Shown here: positions 3,699 to 64,000 of the stretch, in pieces
How the letters are laid out: every line of letters starts with the position of its first letter
Position numbering within the stretch: the stretch's first letter is position 1
Assembly: GCA_049840835.1 (NCBI GenBank)
Contig: JASGJG010000001.1
Coordinates: 199,282-263,281 of the forward strand
Source of the DNA: Armatimonas sp.
GTDB lineage: Bacteria > Armatimonadota > Armatimonadia > Armatimonadales > Armatimonadaceae
Direction of reading: 5' to 3'
Length of the DNA stretch: 64,000 nt
Notes under the pieces: model-generated
What the model was told of the DNA's origin: nothing
The model's input: the letters and a program-made list of their open reading frames with translations, nothing else
The model's database searches: none
Translations under genes and position numbers: made by a program

Positions 3699-4202
3699 CT
3701 TTTCCCAAGAGACCCATCGGCGATTGAAAAAGCGTATCCGGATGCACGGAATATCGGCTGGCTAGATAATTCGGAGCCATTTCCGCAGTGGGATACGCCG
3801 CCAGATGCGCTGCTATTGAAGCGACTTCTAGCGCATACCATCCTCTTTGTGATGCTGATGCGTGGCTATCATAGATGCCAATGGTGCTCTGGCAATAAGA
3901 ACGAACCTGGGCGTAACCTGCTTATCTATGAGGGGCATGAAATACTCTTAGACAACGGCGAGATTCTGGTAGTCGGCACCGATGGTGTCGCCTTTCGCGC
4001 CCCAGTGATGCTCTATCACTACATCACAGAGCATCGCTACAATCCGCCGCGAGTCTTCTGGGATGCTCTGCAGGTTTCATCACCGGCCCTGGGATTCGAC
4101 CTGGAAGATTCGGAGCGAACCCCTTTTAGCGACCAGGCGTATGAAAAGGGGCGTCAGGAAGAGCGGCGGAAAAGACGCGCTTTTGCACTACAGCTCCTTT
4201 AA
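3660..4202 (+). CDS. hypothetical protein
   Basis: 180-aa ORF in intergenic position between minus-strand genes; Cys-containing CQWCSG motif; no family assignment possible by eye. Confidence 0.35.
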   Translation: MAYYPDLSPYTYHLFPRDPSAIEKAYPDARNIGWLDNSEPFPQWDTPPDALLLKRLLAHTILFVMLMRGYHRCQWCSGNKNEPGRNLLIYEGHEILLDNGEILVVGTDGVAFRAPVMLYHYITEHRYNPPRVFWDALQVSSPALGFDLEDSERTPFSDQAYEKGRQEERRKRRAFALQLL

Positions 4203-55053: not shown

Positions 55054-56004
55054 TTAACCCAATCGTACCTTTTGCGGGGCGGAATCCAGCTCGTTACGGG
55101 CATCTGCCAGAGAGGTAGCTTCGGCAGCCACGCGCCGCGCAGACTCGGCCAGGTTCGCCAGCTCGCCAATGCCACTCTGTTCTGTACTCTGTACAGCTAA
55201 GCCGATTCTCAGGGCTTCGGTCTGTGCCACTAGCTCATCACGCAGCACTGCGTTGCGCCGCAGAGTCTGCTGGGAGCGGGAAATTGCATTTGCGGAGCGC
55301 TCGCGGGCATCTGCCTGGCGAATCAGAGAGTCGGAAACAGTCTGATCTGACTCCTGCATTCCCTTTTCGCGTAGCGCTTTCGCCTCTGCCTGCAGGGTTT
55401 CTGGAGCAACGGCAGCACTCTCTGGCGCAGCAGAGGGTAGCTGCTCCATAGCGTCACCCAGGGCACGCAGGGCGCTACGAAGCTCATTTTCCGCAGACTC
55501 GCTCAGGTTGCTCTGACGCAGGGTGTCCTTTATCAACTGGAAATAGGCGCGCTCCAGCGGGTCATTGGCAGCGGCCAGCAGGGCATCTAACTCCGCTTCC
55601 TGCAGGGGAGCCTTGCAGTCGCGGCTCAGCAGAAAGCGCGGCGGAAGCTGCCCAAGGGTGATACCCACGGCTGCCAGTACCGGAACCACTACAGCGACAG
55701 TGGAGAGACCGTGGGGCATTGCGGACAGCCCCATCATTCCCAGAGCGCCACCCCAGGCGCAAGAGAGCACCGTGCCAAAAGTAGAGAAGGATTGCCCAAC
55801 CCTGTCCATAGTCAGGGTAGCGGCAGGCTCTGTCATGCCGGTGCTGCGCTTCAGAAATCCCTGGAAAGGACCGAAAGCCGGGCCAGTCTGGTTCATCATG
55901 GCTCGGCGGCCATGGGTTCGGGAGCTTCCTACGCTTGCCGCTACACGCCGGGCGACAAGCTCTGCGCCCAGCTCCGGGCTGAGGTCACCGGGCAGAAGTT
56001 TCAT
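55054..56004 (-). CDS. membrane-anchored coiled-coil protein, paralog 3 of 4
   Basis: shared blocks ELDALL..LERAYFQLIKDTLR, VSDSLIRQADARERSA, LRDELVAQTEALRIGLAV. Confidence 0.55.
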   Translation of the reverse strand: MKLLPGDLSPELGAELVARRVAASVGSSRTHGRRAMMNQTGPAFGPFQGFLKRSTGMTEPAATLTMDRVGQSFSTFGTVLSCAWGGALGMMGLSAMPHGLSTVAVVVPVLAAVGITLGQLPPRFLLSRDCKAPLQEAELDALLAAANDPLERAYFQLIKDTLRQSNLSESAENELRSALRALGDAMEQLPSAAPESAAVAPETLQAEAKALREKGMQESDQTVSDSLIRQADARERSANAISRSQQTLRRNAVLRDELVAQTEALRIGLAVQSTEQSGIGELANLAESARRVAAEATSLADARNELDSAPQKVRLG

Positions 56005-56990
56005 CGGCGGCCTGCCTGGACTAACTGTGGGCCAGCGTCCAGTTCCGCTGTCGCACGTGCCAGCGAGGTCGCCTCGCCCGCCACAGCGCGTGCGGAGGTC
56101 GCCAGCTGGGTCAGCGCGGTTTCATCAGTATGTCCTGCGGTGTAGTAGGCACTCAGGCCGAGCCGTAAGGCTTCGATCTGCGCGGAAAGCTCCTCACGCA
56201 AGGCTGCCGCGCGTCGGAGACCGAGCTGCGAGTGTCCCAGAGCATCTGCTTGCCGTGCTAGCGCATCTGCCCGGCGCTCCAGAGACTCGGAGACAACGGG
56301 GTCCGCTTCAGCAAGCGCTTTTTTGTGTAGCGCCGCAGCGTCGGCACGGAGTGCATCGGCATCGGGTAGGTCGCCATCCATTACCGGCAGTGGTGGCAGA
56401 GATGCTATGGCTTCACCAACGGTTTTTATTGCGGAACGGACTTCATCTGCTGCTTTTTCCGGAGCGCCTTGAATTCGCACCGCCTCGCGCACCAGCCCGA
56501 GATAGGCTTTCTCTAAAGCATCGCTGGTTTCATGGAGTAGGGCATCTATCTCACCCTCGCTCAGTGGCGTACTTGCCCAGCGCTTCAGATACGCCCGGGG
56601 AGCCGTCAGGCCCGCGAAGATACCACCAACACCAGCCACGGCGAAGACCGAGCCCAGAATCAGCATGACAGTGCTATCATTGCCCCGGCCTGCCAGGCCG
56701 CCTGCCAGCATACCAATAGCCGGGCCGCCGAATCCGCCGCCGAATCCGCCCGCGAAGCCACCTACGATTCCACCGGTGAACCCGCGTGTAGCCGCAAGAA
56801 GCGCCGCGCCGGTTTCCTCATCTACATCCAAACCCTTGAGCCAGTAGCGGCCCAATGCTCCAATAGACGTGGGGGTTACTGTAGAGCGGGGAAACTGCGC
56901 TGCGCCCGAACGACTGACATAGGGAGCAACCCGCCCCAGAACAAGCTGCGCGCAGCGCTTTGAACCAAGGTCCGTGGGGCGGATATCCAT
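56001..56990 (-). CDS. membrane-anchored coiled-coil protein, paralog 4 of 4
   Basis: shared blocks EIDALL..LEKAYLGLVREAVR, VVSESLERRADALARQA, LREELSAQIEALRLGLSA; long GGFGGGFGG region. Confidence 0.55.
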   Translation of the reverse strand: MDIRPTDLGSKRCAQLVLGRVAPYVSRSGAAQFPRSTVTPTSIGALGRYWLKGLDVDEETGAALLAATRGFTGGIVGGFAGGFGGGFGGPAIGMLAGGLAGRGNDSTVMLILGSVFAVAGVGGIFAGLTAPRAYLKRWASTPLSEGEIDALLHETSDALEKAYLGLVREAVRIQGAPEKAADEVRSAIKTVGEAIASLPPLPVMDGDLPDADALRADAAALHKKALAEADPVVSESLERRADALARQADALGHSQLGLRRAAALREELSAQIEALRLGLSAYYTAGHTDETALTQLATSARAVAGEATSLARATAELDAGPQLVQAGRR

Positions 56991-57012
56991 ACAAAAAGCT
57001 CCTCGATACCAA

Positions 57013-57672
57013 TTAGCGACGAGTCATCACGATAATAATAATGGTCAGCGCCGCGATTCCGCCCAGTCCCAGCACCATCCAGTCGTAGGTGCCGAAGAAC
57101 GTGACCAGGAAGACCGCCGTGGCTCCGATAATGCCGAGAATGATTCCCAGTCGGGCCGCGCTGGAGGGATTGCCCTGTTTATTCACAGAGCGCGCAATTA
57201 AGTAGAAGAGAAAGGGAATCGCCAGGAGGCAGACCAGAATACCGATGCCCGCCTTGAGCCACTTATCGCTCACCGACGATACCGAGAACGTGTAGAACTT
57301 GGCCGCATCTTCCGGGTAGCGCGTGGTTTTACCCGTAGCAGTCTTTACCTCGAAGTAGCCGCTGTGCGCGCCCTTCTCAAAGCCATTGATAGCCCAGATA
57401 AGCGTAGCGCCGTTCTCCATGGTTCCTTCCATAGACTTAAAGTCGAAGGAAACACGGGTCGGGGTTTCGTTGATGAACTGGGCGCTCTTGATTCGGTCAC
57501 CGTCTTTATCGGTGTACTCCAGGCGCAGAGAGTAGGGTTTGCCTGGCTCATAGTCGCTCTGGAGCTTGAACTGCGGCTCAGAAGCTTCTTTGAGGGTGGG
57601 AGCCTGCGCAAAGACGGGCAGAACCATCGCCAGCATGGCGAGCAGCGTTACGAAAAGTCGAGTCTTAATCAT
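57013..57672 (-). CDS. exported protein with C-terminal membrane anchor helices
   Basis: signal peptide MIKTRLFVTLLAMLAMVLPVFAQA; two C-terminal TM helices. Confidence 0.5.
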   Translation of the reverse strand: MIKTRLFVTLLAMLAMVLPVFAQAPTLKEASEPQFKLQSDYEPGKPYSLRLEYTDKDGDRIKSAQFINETPTRVSFDFKSMEGTMENGATLIWAINGFEKGAHSGYFEVKTATGKTTRYPEDAAKFYTFSVSSVSDKWLKAGIGILVCLLAIPFLFYLIARSVNKQGNPSSAARLGIILGIIGATAVFLVTFFGTYDWMVLGLGGIAALTIIIIVMTRR

Positions 57673-57677
57673 GTTTT

Positions 57678-58865
57678 TCAGAAACTCTTGGCCGGGTCTA
57701 TGAGCTTGAGCCGTATCTCTTTGTCTGTCAGACTCACCCGAATCTCATCGCCATAGCGTACGACGGTGGGTTTGTCTAACGGCACTCCGTTGATAAAGAC
57801 TCTTGCGGCGGCATTTGGTTGCGGGTAGAGCATAAGCTGCCCGCGTGCACCCGTGAGTTTCCCTACCGGATCTTTTGTGCCAGCCAGTGGGTAGGCGTCG
57901 AAAGAGGCCGCAGCACCCTCACCGCCGAGCCGCACACCCACATTACCTTTGAGCTGAAAATCTTTCGGACTGCCCCCCGAGGAAAGCGCGACACGCAACG
58001 GCATAGGCTTGGGGTTCAAGAAGAAGTATGCCCCCGCTCCCAGAGCGAGCACGGCCAGCCCGCCTATAATGGCAGCGACTGGGGGACCATCTGGCTTTTC
58101 GGAGTTCGGTATCGGCGGTGGCGTGGTCTCAACAACAGGGGCAGGAGTAGGGGCATCCTTGGGCAAGCGCTCCTTGGGGCGCCCATTCTCATCTAAGCCG
58201 ATACCCACGCCAAACGTATGGTCCTTATACTTCAGCAGAAGTCGCTCATAGTCAGCGTTCTCCGTAGTCTTGGGATACTTATCCAGCCGCCCACCCGGAA
58301 TGTAGTACTTCAGGTAGGTCACGCGCTCCGGGTCTTCCGGCTTCGGTTCATCGTTGAACGAGTCCGTGAGCAGCACAATATACGAAGGCTTCGGCTCCGC
58401 GCCCTCTGCCAGCTTCAGAGCTTCATGGTGGGGCTTGCGGATATTGGTGCCAGCACCATTCTCCGGCTGCGTGGGCACCTGCGCGAAAAGGCTCTTTTTG
58501 TCGGACTCGCTCTGCAGGGTCTCATCAAAGACTTTCTTGTAGCCAGAACCGAAGGTGAACAGGGCGACTCTATCGCCTTTTTGAGCACCTTCGTTCAGCA
58601 GGGTATAGATGGCTTCGCGGGTGCGGGCCAGCATCCGGTCCTTTCTCATGGAGCCGGAGACGTCTAAGACCAGAAGCAAATTTTTTGGCGAGGTGGTCTG
58701 CATAGCATGAACCGCGTCGCCTGCCTCGCCAAGATCGGTATCCTGAGCATGAGTCGGGCTCATCCCCAGAATCCACAGCGCCCACAGCGCCAGCATCCAC
58801 CGTAAAGTTCGCACGATAGTCCATTGTACCGATACAATAGCCCGGTTTCCAAAGATGCTGGTCAC
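57678..58865 (-). CDS. von Willebrand factor A domain protein with C-terminal FHA-like domain
   Basis: MIDAS LLLVLDVSGSM; C-terminus ..VFINGVPLDKPTVVRYGDEIRVS.. FHA-like. Confidence 0.7.
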   Translation of the reverse strand: MTSIFGNRAIVSVQWTIVRTLRWMLALWALWILGMSPTHAQDTDLGEAGDAVHAMQTTSPKNLLLVLDVSGSMRKDRMLARTREAIYTLLNEGAQKGDRVALFTFGSGYKKVFDETLQSESDKKSLFAQVPTQPENGAGTNIRKPHHEALKLAEGAEPKPSYIVLLTDSFNDEPKPEDPERVTYLKYYIPGGRLDKYPKTTENADYERLLLKYKDHTFGVGIGLDENGRPKERLPKDAPTPAPVVETTPPPIPNSEKPDGPPVAAIIGGLAVLALGAGAYFFLNPKPMPLRVALSSGGSPKDFQLKGNVGVRLGGEGAAASFDAYPLAGTKDPVGKLTGARGQLMLYPQPNAAARVFINGVPLDKPTVVRYGDEIRVSLTDKEIRLKLIDPAKSF

Positions 58866-60174
58866 CTCTCGTTTCCTCTGGTTACTATCCCTGGGTGTAT
58901 TGCCGCTACTGGGAGCCTATGCGCTGCCGCCTCTAGGAACCCTGACCGCTCTCTGGAACCTTGCGCTGGCTACATTAGCCGTTATTGACTTCCTCCGCTG
59001 CCCGAAACCTATTGACGCACTGGAAGCAAGCCGCATAACCGACGACGTACTCTCTGTAGCTACTCAAAACGAAGTTGAGGTTCGGTTACGAAACTCCACA
59101 AACCATGCATTACGGGTTGTTTTACGCGATGAACCGCCGCCAGAGTTCGCTCTAACCGGAGTCCGGCAGAAAGAGTTGGCTCTAAAGCCGCGCGGAGAGT
59201 TTACGCTGACCTACTCGCTGACCCCACCTGCGCGGGGCAATTTTCGGTTCGGCGATATCTACGCCCGCATCGTAGGGCCATTGGGGCTAGTGATTCGGCA
59301 AGGGAAACTCAAAGATGGCGCGGCTCCGGTTGCAGTCTTTCCCAATATCAAGCAAATCGGAGAGTACGAGCTAAACCTGCGGCGCACCCAGCGGGCACGG
59401 ATGGGAGTGCGCCGCCTGCGCCTGACCGGTGGTGGGCGTGAGTTCAGCTCCCTGCGCGACTACACTCCCGATGATGAATTCCGGGTTATCGACTGGAAAG
59501 CGACCGCCCGGCGTGGCAAAGCCACAGCACGTACTTTTGAAGCCGAGCGTGCTCAAGATGTCCTGCTACTGATTGACAAAGGCCGACTCATGCGCCAGGA
59601 AATCGGCCACGTGCAGAAGCTGGATACCGTGATCAACGCCGCGATGCTGCTGGCCCACGTGGTGGTCAATGCCGACGATAGGATAGGTCTATTGCTTTTC
59701 GATGATGAAGCTCGGACCTGGGTACCCCCACATAAAGGCAAGTCACAGACCACGCACCTGCTGCATGCCCTGTACGCCACTCACGCCGACCCGGTAGAGT
59801 CCGACTATCGTGTGGCGTTTCGGCATCTGGCCGCCCGCTGGCGTAAGCGCAGCTTGATCGTGCTCTTTACCGACCTCGCCGACCCGGAGACCTCTGCCGT
59901 GCTGCTCTCAGAGATTGCGCATTTAAACCGAGCGCACTTGGTCTGCTGCGTGACCGTGCGTGACCCCTTGCTCTCCGAGCAGGCCCGCCAGTTCCCCAAC
60001 AAAATCGAGCATGTCTTTGAAAAAGCCGTAGCTTCAGAAACTCTGGCCGAGCGAAGAAAAACCCTGGCATTACTGGAGCGCCAGGGAGTGTTAGTGGTAG
60101 ATGCAGAGCCGAAAGAGCTTTCCGCCGAGCTGGTGGCCCGCTACCTCGCTGTGAAGCAGCAGGCTATGATTTAA
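58855..60174 (+). CDS. DUF58 domain protein
   Basis: N-terminal TM helices; signature GGREFSSLRDYTPDDEFRVIDWKATARRGK. Confidence 0.8.
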   Translation: MLVTSRFLWLLSLGVLPLLGAYALPPLGTLTALWNLALATLAVIDFLRCPKPIDALEASRITDDVLSVATQNEVEVRLRNSTNHALRVVLRDEPPPEFALTGVRQKELALKPRGEFTLTYSLTPPARGNFRFGDIYARIVGPLGLVIRQGKLKDGAAPVAVFPNIKQIGEYELNLRRTQRARMGVRRLRLTGGGREFSSLRDYTPDDEFRVIDWKATARRGKATARTFEAERAQDVLLLIDKGRLMRQEIGHVQKLDTVINAAMLLAHVVVNADDRIGLLLFDDEARTWVPPHKGKSQTTHLLHALYATHADPVESDYRVAFRHLAARWRKRSLIVLFTDLADPETSAVLLSEIAHLNRAHLVCCVTVRDPLLSEQARQFPNKIEHVFEKAVASETLAERRKTLALLERQGVLVVDAEPKELSAELVARYLAVKQQAMI

Positions 60175-60180
60175 GCTCAC

Positions 60181-60597
60181 TTATGAGTTTTTTTGTTGAG
60201 CAATCACATCGCGAAAAAGTACATAATGCATCATCTCGCCCAGGCTAAACACTATATGTGGTTTGGTCATATAATCCCCTGCTTCACCTGACAAAAAAGC
60301 TGCGGGTATATTCAGGGTGCCATCTTCTTTGAAATGTTGATTCAAATTCTCTGACTCTAATATCTCAGGTGGGTAATAAGAAACACAAAAGCGCATTTGC
60401 ATATCGTGATAGAGAAGCGGTGAGTCTACAATAGTTTTCTTGTCACAGATATTGCAATCGAAGATATTTATATTGCCCGAAAATAGCTTTTTCTTTAGCT
60501 CTGGATCAAGTGTGACGTTGATAGATTCCCATATAGTCATCTTTTGTTTCGAGCCGCAGTGAGGACACTGAAGTTCATGCTGTGCCATCTTAGACAT
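60181..60597 (-). CDS. CpXC-type zinc-ribbon protein, AT-rich gene
   Basis: 138 aa; CPHCG .. CNIC cysteine pairs; GC ~42% in a 60% GC genome. Confidence 0.5.
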   Translation of the reverse strand: MSKMAQHELQCPHCGSKQKMTIWESINVTLDPELKKKLFSGNINIFDCNICDKKTIVDSPLLYHDMQMRFCVSYYPPEILESENLNQHFKEDGTLNIPAAFLSGEAGDYMTKPHIVFSLGEMMHYVLFRDVIAQQKNS

Positions 60598-60718: not shown

Positions 60719-61993
60719 CTAGTGCAGAGTGCGGGTGAGTTTACCCTTCTGAATCCAGTCGTTCAGGGTGAAGCGCTTCGTGGCGATATTCGGGCCGCTG
60801 ATCTCCACCCAGCCCAGATACCAGTCGGAGCCGGGGTAGGAATCATCGCTACGAATGGTTATGCTCTGAATCTCTCCGATTGCCGGGAAACCTTTGAGAG
60901 TAATGGTATCTGTCTGATTGCGCTCAAAGGCGTTTCCAGAGATAAGCGGGTTCAGGCGGACTTCATTGATTTTCCCAGTTGCTCCCTGAATCGCCAGGAA
61001 GATGTTGGAGTCGGTTCCAGCCAGGAATTTGTCTCCGGTGTATACCTTCACTGTGTAGTTCGTGGAACCGATATTGGCCCCGGCAAGCTGAGCCGTGGTC
61101 AGGGTGGTTATCTTCTGGCGGCTTGTAGGAATCGTGATCGGGCCTACCAGATTGGTGGCTCCATTCAGCACTTGCTGGAGAGCAATGCGTACCTTGCCGT
61201 AGTTCGCTTCATCGGCAGTGAAGCGTCCGGGAAAGAAAAGGTCCAGAGACGAGCTATACGCCCCTATCTGCGCACGAATCAAGCCCGTAAGCAAGCCCCG
61301 AGCCGGAGTTGAGTTATCCAGCGCAATCTGGTGGAAGTATTTCCCTTTGCGGTCATCCTTCCACCCGGAGTCTTGCTGTCCACTGGCAGGGCTATAAGAG
61401 GCGAAAGCGGCATTCGGAGTGCGTTTCAGCGAGGTCGTCAGAAAGCTTTTCGCATAGCCGATACCATCCTCCAGGCAGCGCAGCGCACAGACCGGATCGA
61501 ACGGTGGGCGGTCCGGCTGGTGTCCATCGGGGGCATGCCCGAAGGGAACGGAGTAGGGGCTAAAGTTCGTGGGGTGGCTGTTCTCATGGTGCCGGTGCGC
61601 CCAGGTGTCCTGCTGGTAGTGAAAGAACACGCCTAGGCGCTGGAGTTTTTTCTGCGGATCCTGCTCACTGATAGCCTGATTCCAGAGGACCTGTTTGCGC
61701 GCTAAGACTTCGGCTGCGGTGCCATTTTGCGGAATGGAGTGCCACAAATGTTCCTCGGCCACATTGGGAATGATTCCACCCACTCCGCCATTGGCGACCG
61801 TGCCAGAGGAATCGTCCATGCCCTGGTCATAGCTGGCGACTACCAGCGCTTCTGCGTCTGTGAAGCCAGCCATACGGCACTGAACATAGGTCATGGTGAA
61901 GTGGGTGTCTTCTTCGTAGGCATAGGCTGGAGCGCCTGCCAGCGCGCTCAGCAGAGCGATACCTCCGAGAATAGATAGGGTTTTGACTCTCAT
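60719..61993 (-). CDS. secreted zinc-dependent phospholipase C-like N-domain + C-terminal PLAT/LH2 domain (alpha-toxin-like architecture)
   Basis: signal peptide; His-rich Zn-site blocks (YEEDTHF, DTWAHRHHE); C-terminal beta-sandwich ..KVYTGDKFLAGTDSNIFLAIQG..DWYLGWVEISGP.. typical PLAT. Confidence 0.65.
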   Translation of the reverse strand: MRVKTLSILGGIALLSALAGAPAYAYEEDTHFTMTYVQCRMAGFTDAEALVVASYDQGMDDSSGTVANGGVGGIIPNVAEEHLWHSIPQNGTAAEVLARKQVLWNQAISEQDPQKKLQRLGVFFHYQQDTWAHRHHENSHPTNFSPYSVPFGHAPDGHQPDRPPFDPVCALRCLEDGIGYAKSFLTTSLKRTPNAAFASYSPASGQQDSGWKDDRKGKYFHQIALDNSTPARGLLTGLIRAQIGAYSSSLDLFFPGRFTADEANYGKVRIALQQVLNGATNLVGPITIPTSRQKITTLTTAQLAGANIGSTNYTVKVYTGDKFLAGTDSNIFLAIQGATGKINEVRLNPLISGNAFERNQTDTITLKGFPAIGEIQSITIRSDDSYPGSDWYLGWVEISGPNIATKRFTLNDWIQKGKLTRTLH

Positions 61994-62073
61994 GGGTGTG
62001 AATATTCCCTGGAGTGTTTAATCTTAAACATGTTTGAGCAAACTGGTTCTTTGTTGCGATATGGAACCAGACG

Positions 62074-62225
62074 CACATCGCGGCGTGGAGGAAATAGGAG
62101 ACTCGCCGGTTGCTCGAAAGAGCGGTTCCCCCTTTTCGCCCACTTGTCCGGAGTTCCGGGCCGACAGAGGAGGGTTATCTAGGGAGCCGGTGTCCAAAAG
62201 GACGTGCCTGGTGCGAATCCGGGTC
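62074..62225 (+). ncRNA. possible degenerate Y-RNA-like element
   Basis: contains the same conserved insert core ttgtccggagttccgggccg..ggttatc and a T-arm-like cctggtgcgaatccggg, ends partially complementary; no clear D-arm. Confidence 0.3.
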
Positions 62226-62252
62226 GCCGCGACTACTCTAAGAATTACATAT

Positions 62253-62375
62253 CGAGGCGTAGCTCAGTAGTAGAGCAATGGAATATCCTCTCGTCCTCTT
62301 GTCCGGTATCCGGGCCGCTTGAGTAGGGTTATCGTTAATCCATAGGTCGCAAGGTGCGAATCCTTGCCGCCTCGG
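62253..62375 (+). ncRNA. Y-RNA-like (YrlA-type) tRNA-like ncRNA 1
   Basis: acceptor-like pairing cgaggcg/cgcctcg, D-arm tagctcagtagtagagc, T-arm caagg-tgcgaat-ccttg, anticodon-arm position replaced by ~50-nt conserved insert cttgtccggtatccgggccg..ggttatcg; located upstream of Ro60 gene. Confidence 0.55.
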
Positions 62376-62498
62376 CAGTTAGTGTGTTTGAGAATCGGGC
62401 CGACGTTCACGGGTTACCGTCATTTTTGCAAGGGATCGCGGTATGCGAAATACAACCCTGCAGTTTCCTGTGGCAATCCTTGTCTGATTCTCTGTCTT

Positions 62499-62638
62499 GC
62501 GGGTGGGCCAAGCCACAGCGTCTCCAAAGCGCGGTGGGGCGGCAATTTTCCGTTTTGCGCTCTTTGCCTGGAGCCTCAAACTTCGGGCCGTAGCAAGAGG
62601 GTTATCTGGCAAATCTGGTTCGAATCCGACCACCCGCG
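62499..62638 (+). ncRNA. Y-RNA-like tRNA-like ncRNA 2 (more divergent)
   Basis: acceptor gcgggtg/cacccgc, T-loop ggttcgaatcc, same insert family tttgcctggagcc..ttcgggccg..gggttatc. Confidence 0.45.
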
Positions 62639-62745
62639 CTGGAATATACTTGGATATAGAGGGATGGGCCGATGTTTACCGTTATCGTTCCCTCGATGGA
62701 GCAGATGCTCCTTCGGTAGACAACCTTTGCCTATCCTGAACAAAT

Positions 62746-62879
62746 GGGAGCGTAGCTCAGTGGGTAGAGCGGGAAAAATTCCGTCTTCGTCCTTTGCCTG
62801 GAGGGTGACTTTCGGGCCGCAGAATGATGGTTATCGATTGTAACTCGCCAGGTCGAGGGTTCGAATCCCTCCGCTTCCA
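62746..62879 (+). ncRNA. Y-RNA-like tRNA-like ncRNA 3 (ends nearly identical to adjacent tRNA-Ile)
   Basis: 5' gggagcgtagctcagtgggtagagcg and 3' gtcgagggttcgaatccctccgcttcca match tRNA-Ile gene ends; insert tttgcctggagggtgactttcgggccg..ggttatcg in anticodon region. Confidence 0.55.
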
Positions 62880-62904
62880 TAGAAGATTTAGAGAATGGAA
62901 TATC

Positions 62905-63025
62905 AGGGGTGTAGCTCAGTGGTAGAGCACAAGGCAAACTCGTCGCGCTTACTTGTCCGGTATCCGGGCCGCCAGTGATGGTTATCGCAACCTTGCCGTC
63001 GTGGGTTCAAATCCCATTACCCCTG
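62905..63025 (+). ncRNA. Y-RNA-like tRNA-like ncRNA 4
   Basis: acceptor aggggtg/tacccct, D-arm tagctcagtggtagagc, T-arm gtggg-ttcaaat-cccat, insert ttgtccggtatccgggccg..ggttatcg. Confidence 0.55.
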
Positions 63026-63034
63026 AAAAAATTT

Positions 63035-63108
63035 AGAAGCGTAGCTCAGTTGGTCAGAGCACACCCCTGATAAGGGTGAGGTCGCGGGTTCGATTCCCTC
63101 CGCTTCTA
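63035..63108 (+). tRNA. tRNA-Ile (anticodon GAU)
   Basis: cloverleaf: acceptor agaagcg/cgcttct, D-arm gctcagttggtcagagc, anticodon stem cacccc/ggggtg loop cTGATAa, T-arm gcggg-ttcgatt-ccctc; no encoded CCA. Confidence 0.7.
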
Positions 63109-63128
63109 TTAAGACAAAAAGAATATCT

Positions 63129-63200
63129 AGAGGTGTGGCGCAATGGTAGCGCAGCGGATTCCAAATCCGACGGTTGTGGGTTCAAATCCTGTCACCTCTG
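63129..63200 (+). tRNA. tRNA-Trp (anticodon CCA)
   Basis: acceptor agaggtg/cacctct, D-arm gcgc-aatggta-gcgc, anticodon loop ttCCAaa, T-loop ttcaaat; T-stem uses G-U pairs. Confidence 0.6.
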
Positions 63201-63227
63201 TATCGATTAAAAAGGAGAAACACGACG

Positions 63228-64000
63228 ATGCGTTACTTGAAGAACACACTCAACCGAAAGGTGACCCCACAGAATCAGCCGATTCCGGGCTCGGCGCAGG
63301 TACCCAACTCCGCGGGTGGCTACAGCTTTGCCCTGGGAGACTGGGAGCGCCTGGAGCGCTTCCTGATTCTGGGGTCTGAGGGGGGCTCGTACTACGCCAC
63401 CGAGCGTGAACTGACACTTCAGAACGCAACGATTGTACAGAAGTGCGTGAAGGCAGATGGCGAGCGCTTGGTGAAGACCGTAGCCGCTATCTCAGATGCC
63501 GGGCGCGCTCCAAAGAACGATCCGGCTATCTTTGCACTGGCGATTGCTGCTGCCGAGGGCGATGAGAAGACGCGTAAGGCGGCTCTGGCTGCCCTGCCGA
63601 CGGTCTGCCGCACGGGCACGCACCTTTTCCACTTTGCGCAGTTCGTAGATGGCATGCGCGGCTGGGGCCGTGGTCTGCGCCGCGCCGTGGCCGACTGGTA
63701 CACGGACAAGGATACGGACGCGCTGGCCTACCAGGCAGTGAAGTACCAGCAGCGCGATGGCTGGAGCCACCGTGACCTGCTGCGTCTGGCCCACCCGAAG
63801 CCAGAGTCTGAGAGCCGCAAGGCGCTCTACCACTGGGTGACTCAGCACACGCTGACGGATCAGGCTCCGGCCATGGTGCATGCGTTCGAGAAGGCCAAGG
63901 TCAGCACGAATGCGAAGGAACTGGCAGCTCTGATTCGAGAGTCGAAGCTGCCACGTGAGGCGATTCCTACGCAGTTCTTGAATGAGCGCGTGGTGTGGGA
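63228..64000 (+). CDS. rsr: Ro60-kDa autoantigen ortholog (TROVE domain, Rsr), 3' end beyond window
   Basis: RBS aaaggag; MRYLKNTLNRKVTPQNQPIPGSAQVPNSAGGYSFALGDWERLERFLILGSEGGSYYATERELT matches conserved Ro60/Rsr N-terminus. Confidence 0.85.
   Translation, partial: MRYLKNTLNRKVTPQNQPIPGSAQVPNSAGGYSFALGDWERLERFLILGSEGGSYYATERELTLQNATIVQKCVKADGERLVKTVAAISDAGRAPKNDPAIFALAIAAAEGDEKTRKAALAALPTVCRTGTHLFHFAQFVDGMRGWGRGLRRAVADWYTDKDTDALAYQAVKYQQRDGWSHRDLLRLAHPKPESESRKALYHWVTQHTLTDQAPAMVHAFEKAKVSTNAKELAALIRESKLPREAIPTQFLNERVVW

Follow-up and report, generated by a model that had tools for sequence, protein, structure and literature searches.

What kinds of RNA does a bacterium encode directly in front of its Ro60 gene? 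The question is raised by the right-hand end of the 64-kb window analysed here (the whole stretch of Armatimonas sp. DNA, from contig JASGJG010000001.1), where rsr, encoding an orthologue of Ro60, is preceded by a series of repeated tRNA-like elements. An earlier reading of this DNA from its letters alone (the sequence-only reading) had described them as four or five tRNA-derived Y-RNA-like genes lying 5' of a TROVE gene. This placement stands. The motif CGGGCCG-N6-16-GGTTATC has five matches in the window, all at 62157-62986 (+), where dinucleotide shuffles expect 0.00, and the open reading frame (ORF) that starts at 63228 matches Pfam TROVE (1.2e-28). Five matches against 0.00 expected mean that the observation is real and not due to chance.

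We estimate a probability of about 0.75 that the region is a Y RNA–tRNA–rsr operon, from which seven predicted Ro60-binding Y RNAs would be released from a polycistronic precursor via tRNA processing, each with one predicted Ro60 module of the metazoan/Deinococcus type. In five of the seven (E1 to E5), the module is best read as an insertion that a tRNA-like body carries in its anticodon arm, the ends of the RNA forming a 7-8-bp acceptor stem. The anatomy of these elements, their conservation, their covariation and their linkage to Ro60 were observed directly and are described first.

Layout of the array and the Ro60 gene

The array contains seven Ro-site modules, five closed (E1-E5) and two open (YB1 and YB2). 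The order is E1, E2, YB1, E3, YB2, E4, E5, tRNA-Ile, tRNA-Trp, rsr, with spacers of 5-27 nt. Positions refer to the 64-kb window:

62078..62233 (+), E1: closed Y module; the RNA ends form an 8-bp acceptor-type stem, and a T arm is present but no D arm
62253..62374 (+), E2: full cloverleaf with 7-bp acceptor, D arm and T arm; module core 62311-62333
62390..62492 (+), YB1: classic open Y RNA; 5' AGAAUCGGGC-C-GA paired with 3' UUGUCUGAUUCU, with a bulged C
62499..62637 (+), E3: closed Y module with core 62584-62606 and an 8-bp distal helix, without D arm
62661..62737 (+), YB2: classic open Y RNA; GGAUGGGC-C-GA paired with UUUGCCUAUCC
62746..62879 (+), E4: full cloverleaf of the type that we call alpha; Y module core 62813-62835
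62905..63025 (+), E5: full cloverleaf; anticodon stem CAAGG/CCUUG around a closed Y module with core 62965-62986
63034..63109 (+), tRNA-Ile(GAU): genuine tRNA, 9 nt past E5 (ARAGORN; Rfam 68.3 bits)
63128..63201 (+), tRNA-Trp(CCA): genuine tRNA, 27 nt before the rsr start codon (ARAGORN; Rfam 62.3 bits)
63228..64000 (+), rsr (Ro60 orthologue): N-terminal 257 codons, continuing beyond the window end

The sequence-only reading had the five tRNA-like elements right and missed the two open ones. They emerged when the 5' strand of the motif was sought less strictly, which gave copies at 62396 and 62665; here the complementary strand lies 57-79 nt downstream, whereas in E1-E5 it lies immediately upstream. 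The acceptor, D and T arms that had been ascribed to all elements are present in E2, E4 and E5; E1 and E3 have no D arm.

In E2, E4 and E5, the D arm is canonical (UAGCUCAG...AGAGC) and the 7-bp acceptor is built from the RNA ends. In E2, a 5-bp anticodon stem (AUGGA/UCCAU) surrounds the module; its elbow is a variant one (D loop AGUAGUA, which lacks GG, and T loop UGCGAAU), and its minimum free energy (MFE) fold is the cloverleaf (z = -2.8). Neither E2 nor E5 has an anticodon loop, and the unconstrained minimum-energy structure of both is a cloverleaf. The E4 module is a side arm between nt 28 and 29 of the anticodon stem, leaving a 3-bp lower stem and a 7-nt anticodon-like loop, UUGUAAC. The module of E1 reads UUGUCCGG-AGUU-CCGGGCCG...GGGUUAUC (core 62157-62179), and its T arm, at 62206-62224 in the MFE fold, has the loop UGCGAAU. 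E3 ends in an 8-bp terminal stem (GCGGGUGG/CCACCCGC) and has a degenerate T arm (GGUUCGAAUCC). Of the open elements, YB1 (z = -2.96) continues into the upper stem CACGGG/CCUGUG, followed by UUACC and a loop, and its terminal extension pairs at 5/5 positions; YB2 (z = -4.60; 0/200 shuffles equally stable) continues into an 8-bp upper stem (GUUUACCG/CGGUAGAC), followed by UUAUC and a hairpin-bearing loop.

Neither the elements in the window nor its two tRNAs have an encoded CCA. A Shine-Dalgarno sequence (AAAAGGAGAA) at 63210-63219 precedes rsr, and no intrinsic terminator was found in a scan of 61900-63300. ORFs overlapping the array gave no Pfam match at E<=0.01, the single CarD_C match (E 0.071) being at chance level.

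The rsr fragment in the window matched Protein Data Bank entries 2nvo (2.2e-50) and 1yvp (5e-49) and is 76% and 73% identical to those of Armatimonas and Armatimonadota metagenome-assembled genomes (MAGs). Its vWA portion falls beyond the window end. For comparison, we used 80 related Ro60 loci labelled Armatimonadota, Chloroflexota, Abditibacteriota, Verrucomicrobiota, Myxococcota and others. The full-length orthologue in one of them, L002 (73% identical), contains TROVE and vWA_Ro60 (2e-67) and matched 2nvo at 1.9e-132 and 1yvp at 2.5e-127; L002 also keeps the tRNA-Trp in position (3767-3841, 84% identity). The histidine aligned with Ro60 H187 is invariant in the clade, and H187S is a reported mutant defective in Y RNA binding (PMC11277228). 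D. radiodurans Rsr and the Ro60 proteins of X. laevis and human are close homologues of the protein in the window.

The Ro60-site module and its animal counterparts

All five closed elements contain the block YUUG(C/U)C(C/U)G - loop - CGGGC-C-G - 8-9 nt - GGUUAUC. The two halves of the block pair as a 6-8-bp helix, beyond which come a bulged C and a G-U pair; the strand after these pairs with upstream sequence to give a second stem. The module as a whole consists of a 6-10-bp helix, the bulged C within GGGC-C-G, an upper stem and the motif UUAUC. The bulged-C lower helix is found in all seven modules of the window, here in the variant GGGCCG / UUG(C/U)C, and the UUAUC position reads GGUUAUC in E1-E5, CGUUAUC in YB2 and GGUUACC in YB1. 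YB1 and YB2 build the Ro stem from the 5' and 3' termini of the RNA. In E1-E5, a hairpin loop closes the helix, and this loop is 3-12 nt long in E2, E4 and E5.

What is conserved across modules is the site YGGGYCG, on both strands, and then GGUUAUC. The lower helix is 100% paired in 25 relatives, with a closing pair that is G-C in 18, A-U in 3 and G-U in 2; among isolated modules, the closing pair of the Ro helix is G-C in 39 sequences and A-U in 14. MAFFT and RNAalifold, applied to 54 isolated modules, placed stem 2 out of register and thus recovered only the lower helix, of 5 bp. Stem 2 was therefore assessed by comparing cognate with non-cognate pairing, and with the better-aligned alpha-unit alignment (see below). 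In the former comparison, the cognate partner paired better than the partners taken from other copies (0/2000 permutations).

The site can be set beside the 5' strands of human Y4 and Y1 RNAs (hY4 and hY1; both strings were confirmed verbatim in the literature) and of the nematode stem-bulge RNAs (sbRNAs):

hY4: GGUCCGA-UGGUAGU-GGGUUAUC (5' start GGCUGGUCCGAUGGUAGUGGGUUAUCAG)
hY1: GGUCCGA-AGGUAGU-GAGUUAUC (5' start GGCUGGUCCGAAGGUAGUGAGUUAUCUC)
YB1: GGGCCGA-CGUUCAC-GGGUUACC (UCGGGCCGACGUUCACGGGUUACC)
E2: GGGCCGC-UUGAGUA-GGGUUAUC (CCGGGCCGCUUGAGUAGGGUUAUC)
nematode sbRNA, Rfam consensus: UCGGUCCGGaGucgaUGGGUUAUC

The bulged nucleotide within GGUCCGA is a critical Ro60 determinant (PMC11277228), and sbRNAs and vertebrate Y RNAs are known to share UUAUC as a conserved motif (PMC4726728). 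The modules share with D. radiodurans Yrn1 and Yrn2, vertebrate Y RNAs and sbRNAs (RF00019, RF01656 and related families) the bulged-C helix in GG(U/G)CCG, the 3' strand YUUG(A/Y)C and an 8-nt upper-stem strand followed by GGGUUAUC. As judged by this comparison, the conserved block is a Ro60 site of the vertebrate Y RNA and nematode sbRNA type, in E1-E5 closed by a loop in place of the RNA termini. YB1 and YB2 have the full classic Y RNA architecture, with a terminal stem from the RNA ends. Open relatives in 4/16 loci (L017, L038, L044 and L048) pass the gathering score of the sbRNA model RF01656 (39.4-42.9 against 38 bits).

E1-E5 differ from Y RNAs and sbRNAs in that the Ro helix contains no RNA termini and in that the putative effector domain is the whole tRNA-like body. 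In addition, bacterial transcription and processing would take the place of the RNA polymerase III and La that serve metazoan Y RNAs. In D. radiodurans, Yrn1 and Yrn2 are likewise encoded together with tRNAs upstream of rsr, and a polycistronic precursor, Yrn2-tRNA-Asp-Yrn1, provides a precedent for the arrangement seen here. The Ro stem of Yrn1 stands at the acceptor position, whereas that of E1-E5 stands in the anticodon arm.

tRNA-like bodies and related Ro60 loci

Modules were present in 77/80 related loci, with a median of 4 and a maximum of 10. At least four were found in 45/80, so that the array size, which had seemed striking in the sequence-only reading, is unremarkable; arrays like that of the window are the norm in this Ro60 clade and not an oddity. 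The Ro strand holds 286 of the modules in the 80 loci and the opposite strand 11; shuffles lead one to expect about 6 modules (shuffle results are given as counts throughout). They lie <=1.5 kb upstream of the rsr start codon in most loci and downstream of rsr in L036, L044, L045, L066, L069 and L080. Both the closed (hairpin) arrangement and the open one (strands at the RNA ends) are common. Among 140 open candidates, which present 118 distinct flank combinations, the 5 nt flanking the helix pair at 3.67/5 positions on average, against 2.14 in shuffles (0/5000 shuffles).

A covariance model built from 25 closed units (R1) detected E1-E5 and the two real tRNAs in the 64-kb window and nothing else. 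The scores were 83.5 bits for E2 (E 9e-20), 71.5 for E5 and 112 for E4, the last belonging to the model seed. In the 80 loci, R1 gave 225 matches at E<1e-6; about 100 of these, >100 nt long and reaching at least 59 bits, are tRNA-embedded Y modules. The Rfam tRNA model also calls many 105-130-nt units of this kind in related loci. The orthologue of E1 in L002 (3135-3273) is 71% identical to it.

The bodies were examined most closely in an alignment of 25 alpha units, comprising E4 and its relatives. In this alignment, 93.9% of the cells were paired, compared with 45-50% when the partners were slid, and both sides of a pair had changed in 112 cells, against 34 in shuffles (0/500 shuffles reached 112). 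Compensatory changes were found in 6/7 acceptor pairs and 3/5 T-stem pairs. The D stem, 99% paired, is invariant and hence neither supports nor opposes the proposed structure. The anticodon-stem pairs 27-28:42-43, which involve the two nucleotides after position 26, were formed in 44/46 cases with 11 paired dinucleotide combinations (0/5000 shuffles), including CG/CG, GG/CC, AU/AU, CU/AG, UC/GA and CC/GG. Positions 29-31, which pair with 39-41, are supplied by the last nucleotides of the UUAUCR motif. The covariation thus supports the acceptor and T stems, the split anticodon stem and the stems of the module: the alpha Y module does not just occupy the anticodon loop but is a side arm in the 5' strand of the anticodon stem, and the remainder is a complete tRNA.

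The alpha units keep a 7-nt loop of the form YU-NNN-AA. The triplets of near-identical orthologues are CAU (seven times), GAU (three times), UCU, AUU, GCU, UUU, AUC, CAG, UGU and CCA, with GUA in E4. They vary while the acceptor and T arms stay constant, and they include A34 triplets, which are unusual in bacteria. As the triplets are not conserved, these units are not decoding tRNAs. Of E1-E5, only E5 is recognised by the Rfam tRNA model (50 bits), which places a 55-nt insertion in its anticodon loop, and ARAGORN calls none of the five.

According to the sequence-only reading, the element now called E4 shares both ends almost exactly with tRNA-Ile and captures a Y RNA in the course of evolving from a tRNA. 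The likeness is there at the 3' end (27/30); at the 5' end, it is 22/27 and is equalled by E2 and E5. The proposed snapshot did not survive comparison with other genomes. Orthologues of E4 occur in other Armatimonadota (at ~79% identity in L001 and L002), and alpha-type units occur in every phylum group sampled, so the fusion must be old. Gene conversion may explain the 3' identity with tRNA-Ile as well as ancestry does. Alpha loops such as CUGAUAA and CUCAUAA would fit an Ile- or Met-like ancestor.

Other paralogue types are each conserved across species. In the beta type, to which E2 belongs, a UGC T loop goes together with a D loop lacking GG in 7/7 units, a combination also found in E2; a UUC T loop goes together with a GG-containing D loop in 43/43 units. 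The beta units are at L005 3580, L006 2392, L008 3798, L009 3753, L011 3683, L012 3729 and L014 3724; they have UGCRANU as T loop, with G in place of U at position 55, and a D loop resembling AGYAGYA. The double loop change suggests, from sequence, a remodelled elbow with a different partner. In beta units, a further conserved hairpin with a GNRA cap (GCCGCAAGGC) also stands between D arm and Y module (L005 3580-3714, L006 2392-2527, L011 3683-3816, L012 3729-3865 and L014 3724-3859), which makes the anticodon arm multi-branched. At the equivalent site, E4 has the hairpin GGAAAAAUUCC.

At the 3' ends of closed units, CCA is genome-encoded in 14/52, an uninformative split. Alpha 3' ends in many Armatimonadales and Capsulimonadaceae (L006, L007, L009-L012, L014 and L035) read ...CGCUUUCC-ACCA, with a G before the 7-bp acceptor, so that an 8-bp acceptor stem followed by A-CCA is possible. 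Units from Chloroflexia (L023 and L026) encode N73-CCA directly.

A few loci had further features of note. The Ro60 genes of L038, L048, L055 and L066 (Verrucomicrobia-like, Kofleriaceae) lie inside dense tRNA arrays, in which Rfam finds ~10-25 tRNA genes per 8.8 kb interleaved with Y modules; ARAGORN called 315 tRNAs in total in the window and the 80 loci. L008 is labelled Janthinobacterium lividum and has an Armatimonadales-type array, and L055 (Pseudomonadales), L063 (Saccharimonadales) and L074 (Akkermansia muciniphila) are Verrucomicrobia-type loci. These mismatches probably reflect mis-binned MAG contigs, or possibly horizontal transfer.

Predicted viral contigs (IMG/VR, 24-465 kb) contain arrays of 2-6 metazoan-type Y modules, often near tRNA genes. 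They were scanned with a 14-base pattern, for which single matches are at chance level; multi-match contigs alone were taken as real. The arrays are at L101 918-1511, L103 5112-5940, L123 2850-3228, L150 9018-9489 and L160 4519-4817, with others in L106 and L124; that of L103 includes closed, tRNA-like units.

Proposed function and alternative explanations

The closest functional analogue is YrlA, known from Salmonella, Mycobacterium and others, in which a Ro60-binding stem is combined with a tRNA-like domain, encoded beside rsr (PMC4201824). YrlA genes are, like the array, on the rsr strand within a few kb (~4 kb) of it, the array ending 27 nt before rsr. In both, the Ro module is joined to a tRNA-like domain with a D arm, a T arm and an acceptor-type stem, in the direction of the anticodon arm, and the expected function would be that of a tether, gate or scaffold for Ro60. 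The order of the parts differs: YrlA has the T arm, a closed acceptor, the D arm and a Ro stem from the ends, whereas E2, E4 and E5 have the D arm before the T arm and an open 7-bp acceptor. YrlA keeps only the 5'-strand GNCGAA motif (GNCGAAN0-1G), whereas E1-E5 conserve both strands and UUAUC; an anticodon-like stem-loop, kept by some units here, is absent from YrlA. Transfer-messenger RNA (tmRNA) and viral tRNA-like structures likewise have a large functional insertion outside a tRNA-like domain of acceptor and T arm. The Rfam tmRNA model gives a weak match to the acceptor and T arm of E4 (25 bits), but there is no mRNA-like ORF, pseudoknot or SmpB context here, the insertion being instead a predicted Ro60-binding hairpin.

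We infer transcription, processing, Ro60 binding and tethering to proceed as follows. A single precursor would be transcribed toward rsr. RNase P and the tRNA 3'-end machinery would cut at the tRNA-like bodies and the two real tRNAs, releasing ~80-155-nt RNAs and rsr mRNA. Ro60 would bind the module with its outer surface, and the tRNA-like body (elbow, acceptor end and, in E4, the anticodon-like loop) would be the effector or tether domain and would also provide a scaffold resistant to nucleases, in line with what has been proposed for YrlA. The paralogues (alpha, altered-elbow beta, acceptor/T-arm-only and open) might then couple Ro60 to different partners.

Several observations weigh against this interpretation. 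All characterised Y RNAs have free termini at the site of the loop of E1-E5. Rfam models of the Y RNA type leave the window copies below threshold: YB1 scores 20.6 bits with the sbRNA model RF01656 (gathering score 38), the metazoan Y_RNA model RF00019 has no match at E<=10 in the window, and the best match to YrlA (RF02553), at 62831-62949, reaches 29.3 bits (E 6e-4 in a 1.3-kb search; gathering score 69). At gathering scores, a search of the window returned tRNA matches only. E1 and E3 match the R1 family model weakly (23.5 bits, E 3e-4, and 34 bits, E 6e-7). No sigma-70-type promoter was found upstream of E1 in the scan of 61900-63300, and neither rtcB, PNPase (a context the sequence-only reading had suggested) nor another conserved effector gene was found beside rsr in L002 and L010. 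Finally, the shuffle controls ignore phylogenetic relatedness, so that the counts above are not probabilities.

A different account would treat the array mainly as a cis-acting leader of rsr mRNA through which Ro60 regulates its own synthesis, with no stable trans-acting RNAs. All seven sites do precede rsr on its own strand, without an intervening terminator, and the distance of at most 1.5 kb usual in related loci would suit a leader. We nevertheless regard this as improbable. Two genuine tRNAs separate the array from rsr, so processing must sever any leader; several loci have modules downstream of rsr; and the tRNA-like bodies and open terminal stems covary, although a mere protein-binding leader would need neither. 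In characterised bacteria, moreover, Y RNAs are stable and Rsr-bound (PMC4201824).

Somewhat less probable again is that the RNAs are permuted molecules of the YrlA type, each starting midway through one unit and ending midway through the following one, with a Ro stem made of the 5' strand of one unit and the 3' strand of the following one and a cloverleaf that is an artefact of tandem repetition. The YrlA match does run in this junction register, from the 3' half of E4 through the spacer into the 5' half of E5; the Ro-helix strands are conserved between units, which makes inter-unit pairing possible; and an origin of YrlA from dimeric tRNA transcripts has already been proposed (bioRxiv 10.1101/312249). 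Yet the score is far under the gathering score, and YrlA was not found at that score in any of 16 related loci. The acceptor strands pair within the unit, with the compensatory changes described, whereas pairing of the E4 3' with the E5 5' strand would give 6 bp with three G-U pairs. Next to many closed units stands an open Y RNA or a real tRNA and not a second closed unit (e.g. E2-YB1-E3-YB2), and the loops closing the helix are as short as 3 nt. Identity with YrlA was rejected on the grounds of score, junction-spanning register, non-permuted order and different Ro motif; what stood of the original interpretation is that these are tRNA-derived, Y-RNA-like genes on the Ro60 strand.

It is very unlikely that the elements are real tRNA genes with an excisable, intron-like Y module that mature into decoding tRNAs. 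Without the module inserted between nt 28 and 29, an alpha unit such as E4 would indeed be a perfect tRNA, and the anticodon-like loops retain U33 and A37/A38. In other bacteria, rsr is linked to the RNA ligase RtcB, which would suit splicing, but rtcB is absent from the vicinity of rsr in L002 and L010. The triplets drift among near-identical alpha orthologues, an anticodon loop is missing from E2 and E5 and a D arm from E1 and E3, the position of the insert within the stem is unlike that of known bacterial group I tRNA introns, and the module is under purifying selection of its own and identical to the free-standing Y RNA module. Least likely of all are functionless remnants, that is, decaying tRNA pseudogenes or leftovers of mobile or phage tRNA clusters. 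The incomplete bodies of E1 and E3 and the related modules in viral contigs and dense tRNA arrays would fit such decay, but ~100 tRNA-embedded units of at least 59 bits in several phyla, compensatory changes in every stem except the invariant D stem and distinct paralogue types each kept across species would not.

If the operon interpretation is correct, E1-E5 break a stated rule. According to Wang et al. (bioRxiv 10.1101/312249), the two RNA ends build the stem that holds the Ro60 site in all characterised Y RNAs, and E1-E5 and ~100 relatives depart from this. Bacterial Y RNAs have been described as highly divergent from vertebrate ones (PMC4726728), whereas the layout of the site here is that of human Y1 and Y4 and nematode sbRNAs, including UUAUC. 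Searches of the literature and of Rfam returned no description of closed, tRNA-embedded or UUAUC-type bacterial Y RNAs; the main 2018-2020 reviews and the supplementary tables of Chen et al. 2014 were outside their coverage, and a prior description is possible.

There is also a substantial chance, somewhat below even, that the elements represent an undescribed class of Y RNA, bacterial (and probably phage too) and present in several phyla, in which a vertebrate-type site is a closed side arm in a complete, non-permuted tRNA. Ro60 might on this proposal be tethered to a full tRNA mimic, possibly bearing CCA or an amino acid, and engage tRNA-binding machinery. Tandem units might be the missing precursor for a dimeric-tRNA (permutation-by-duplication) origin of YrlA, and a module almost identical to that of animal Y RNAs and sbRNAs would contradict the opinion that the bacterial and animal RNAs have no relationship. 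Tandem closed units such as E4-E5 are a configuration that could yield a YrlA-type molecule by a shift in the frame of transcription or processing, an evolutionary link that would explain the weak YrlA-model match at the E4/E5 junction.

If Ro60 binds E1-E5, it can read its site in a hairpin context, and nature supplies graded chimeras of tRNA and Y RNA (a full tRNA that keeps an anticodon-like loop, a form whose elbow is altered, and a bare acceptor/T minihelix) for finding partners of the tRNA-like domain of bacterial Y RNAs; the dimeric-tRNA model would become directly testable. Annotation pipelines would call such loci intron-containing tRNAs or pseudo-tRNAs or overlook them, whereas R1 recovers ~100 units in 80 loci.

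The genes on the other side of the array have no evident Ro60 link. A VWA/DUF58 cluster occupies 55054-60174 of the window: three ORFs in 55054-57672 (-) have no Pfam match, and they are followed by a protein with VWA domains (57678-58865 (-)) and one with DUF58 and VWA_2 (58855-60174 (+)). Divergent from the array are a CpXC protein (60181-60597 (-)) and a PLAT/LH2 and DUF6765 protein (60719-61993 (-)).

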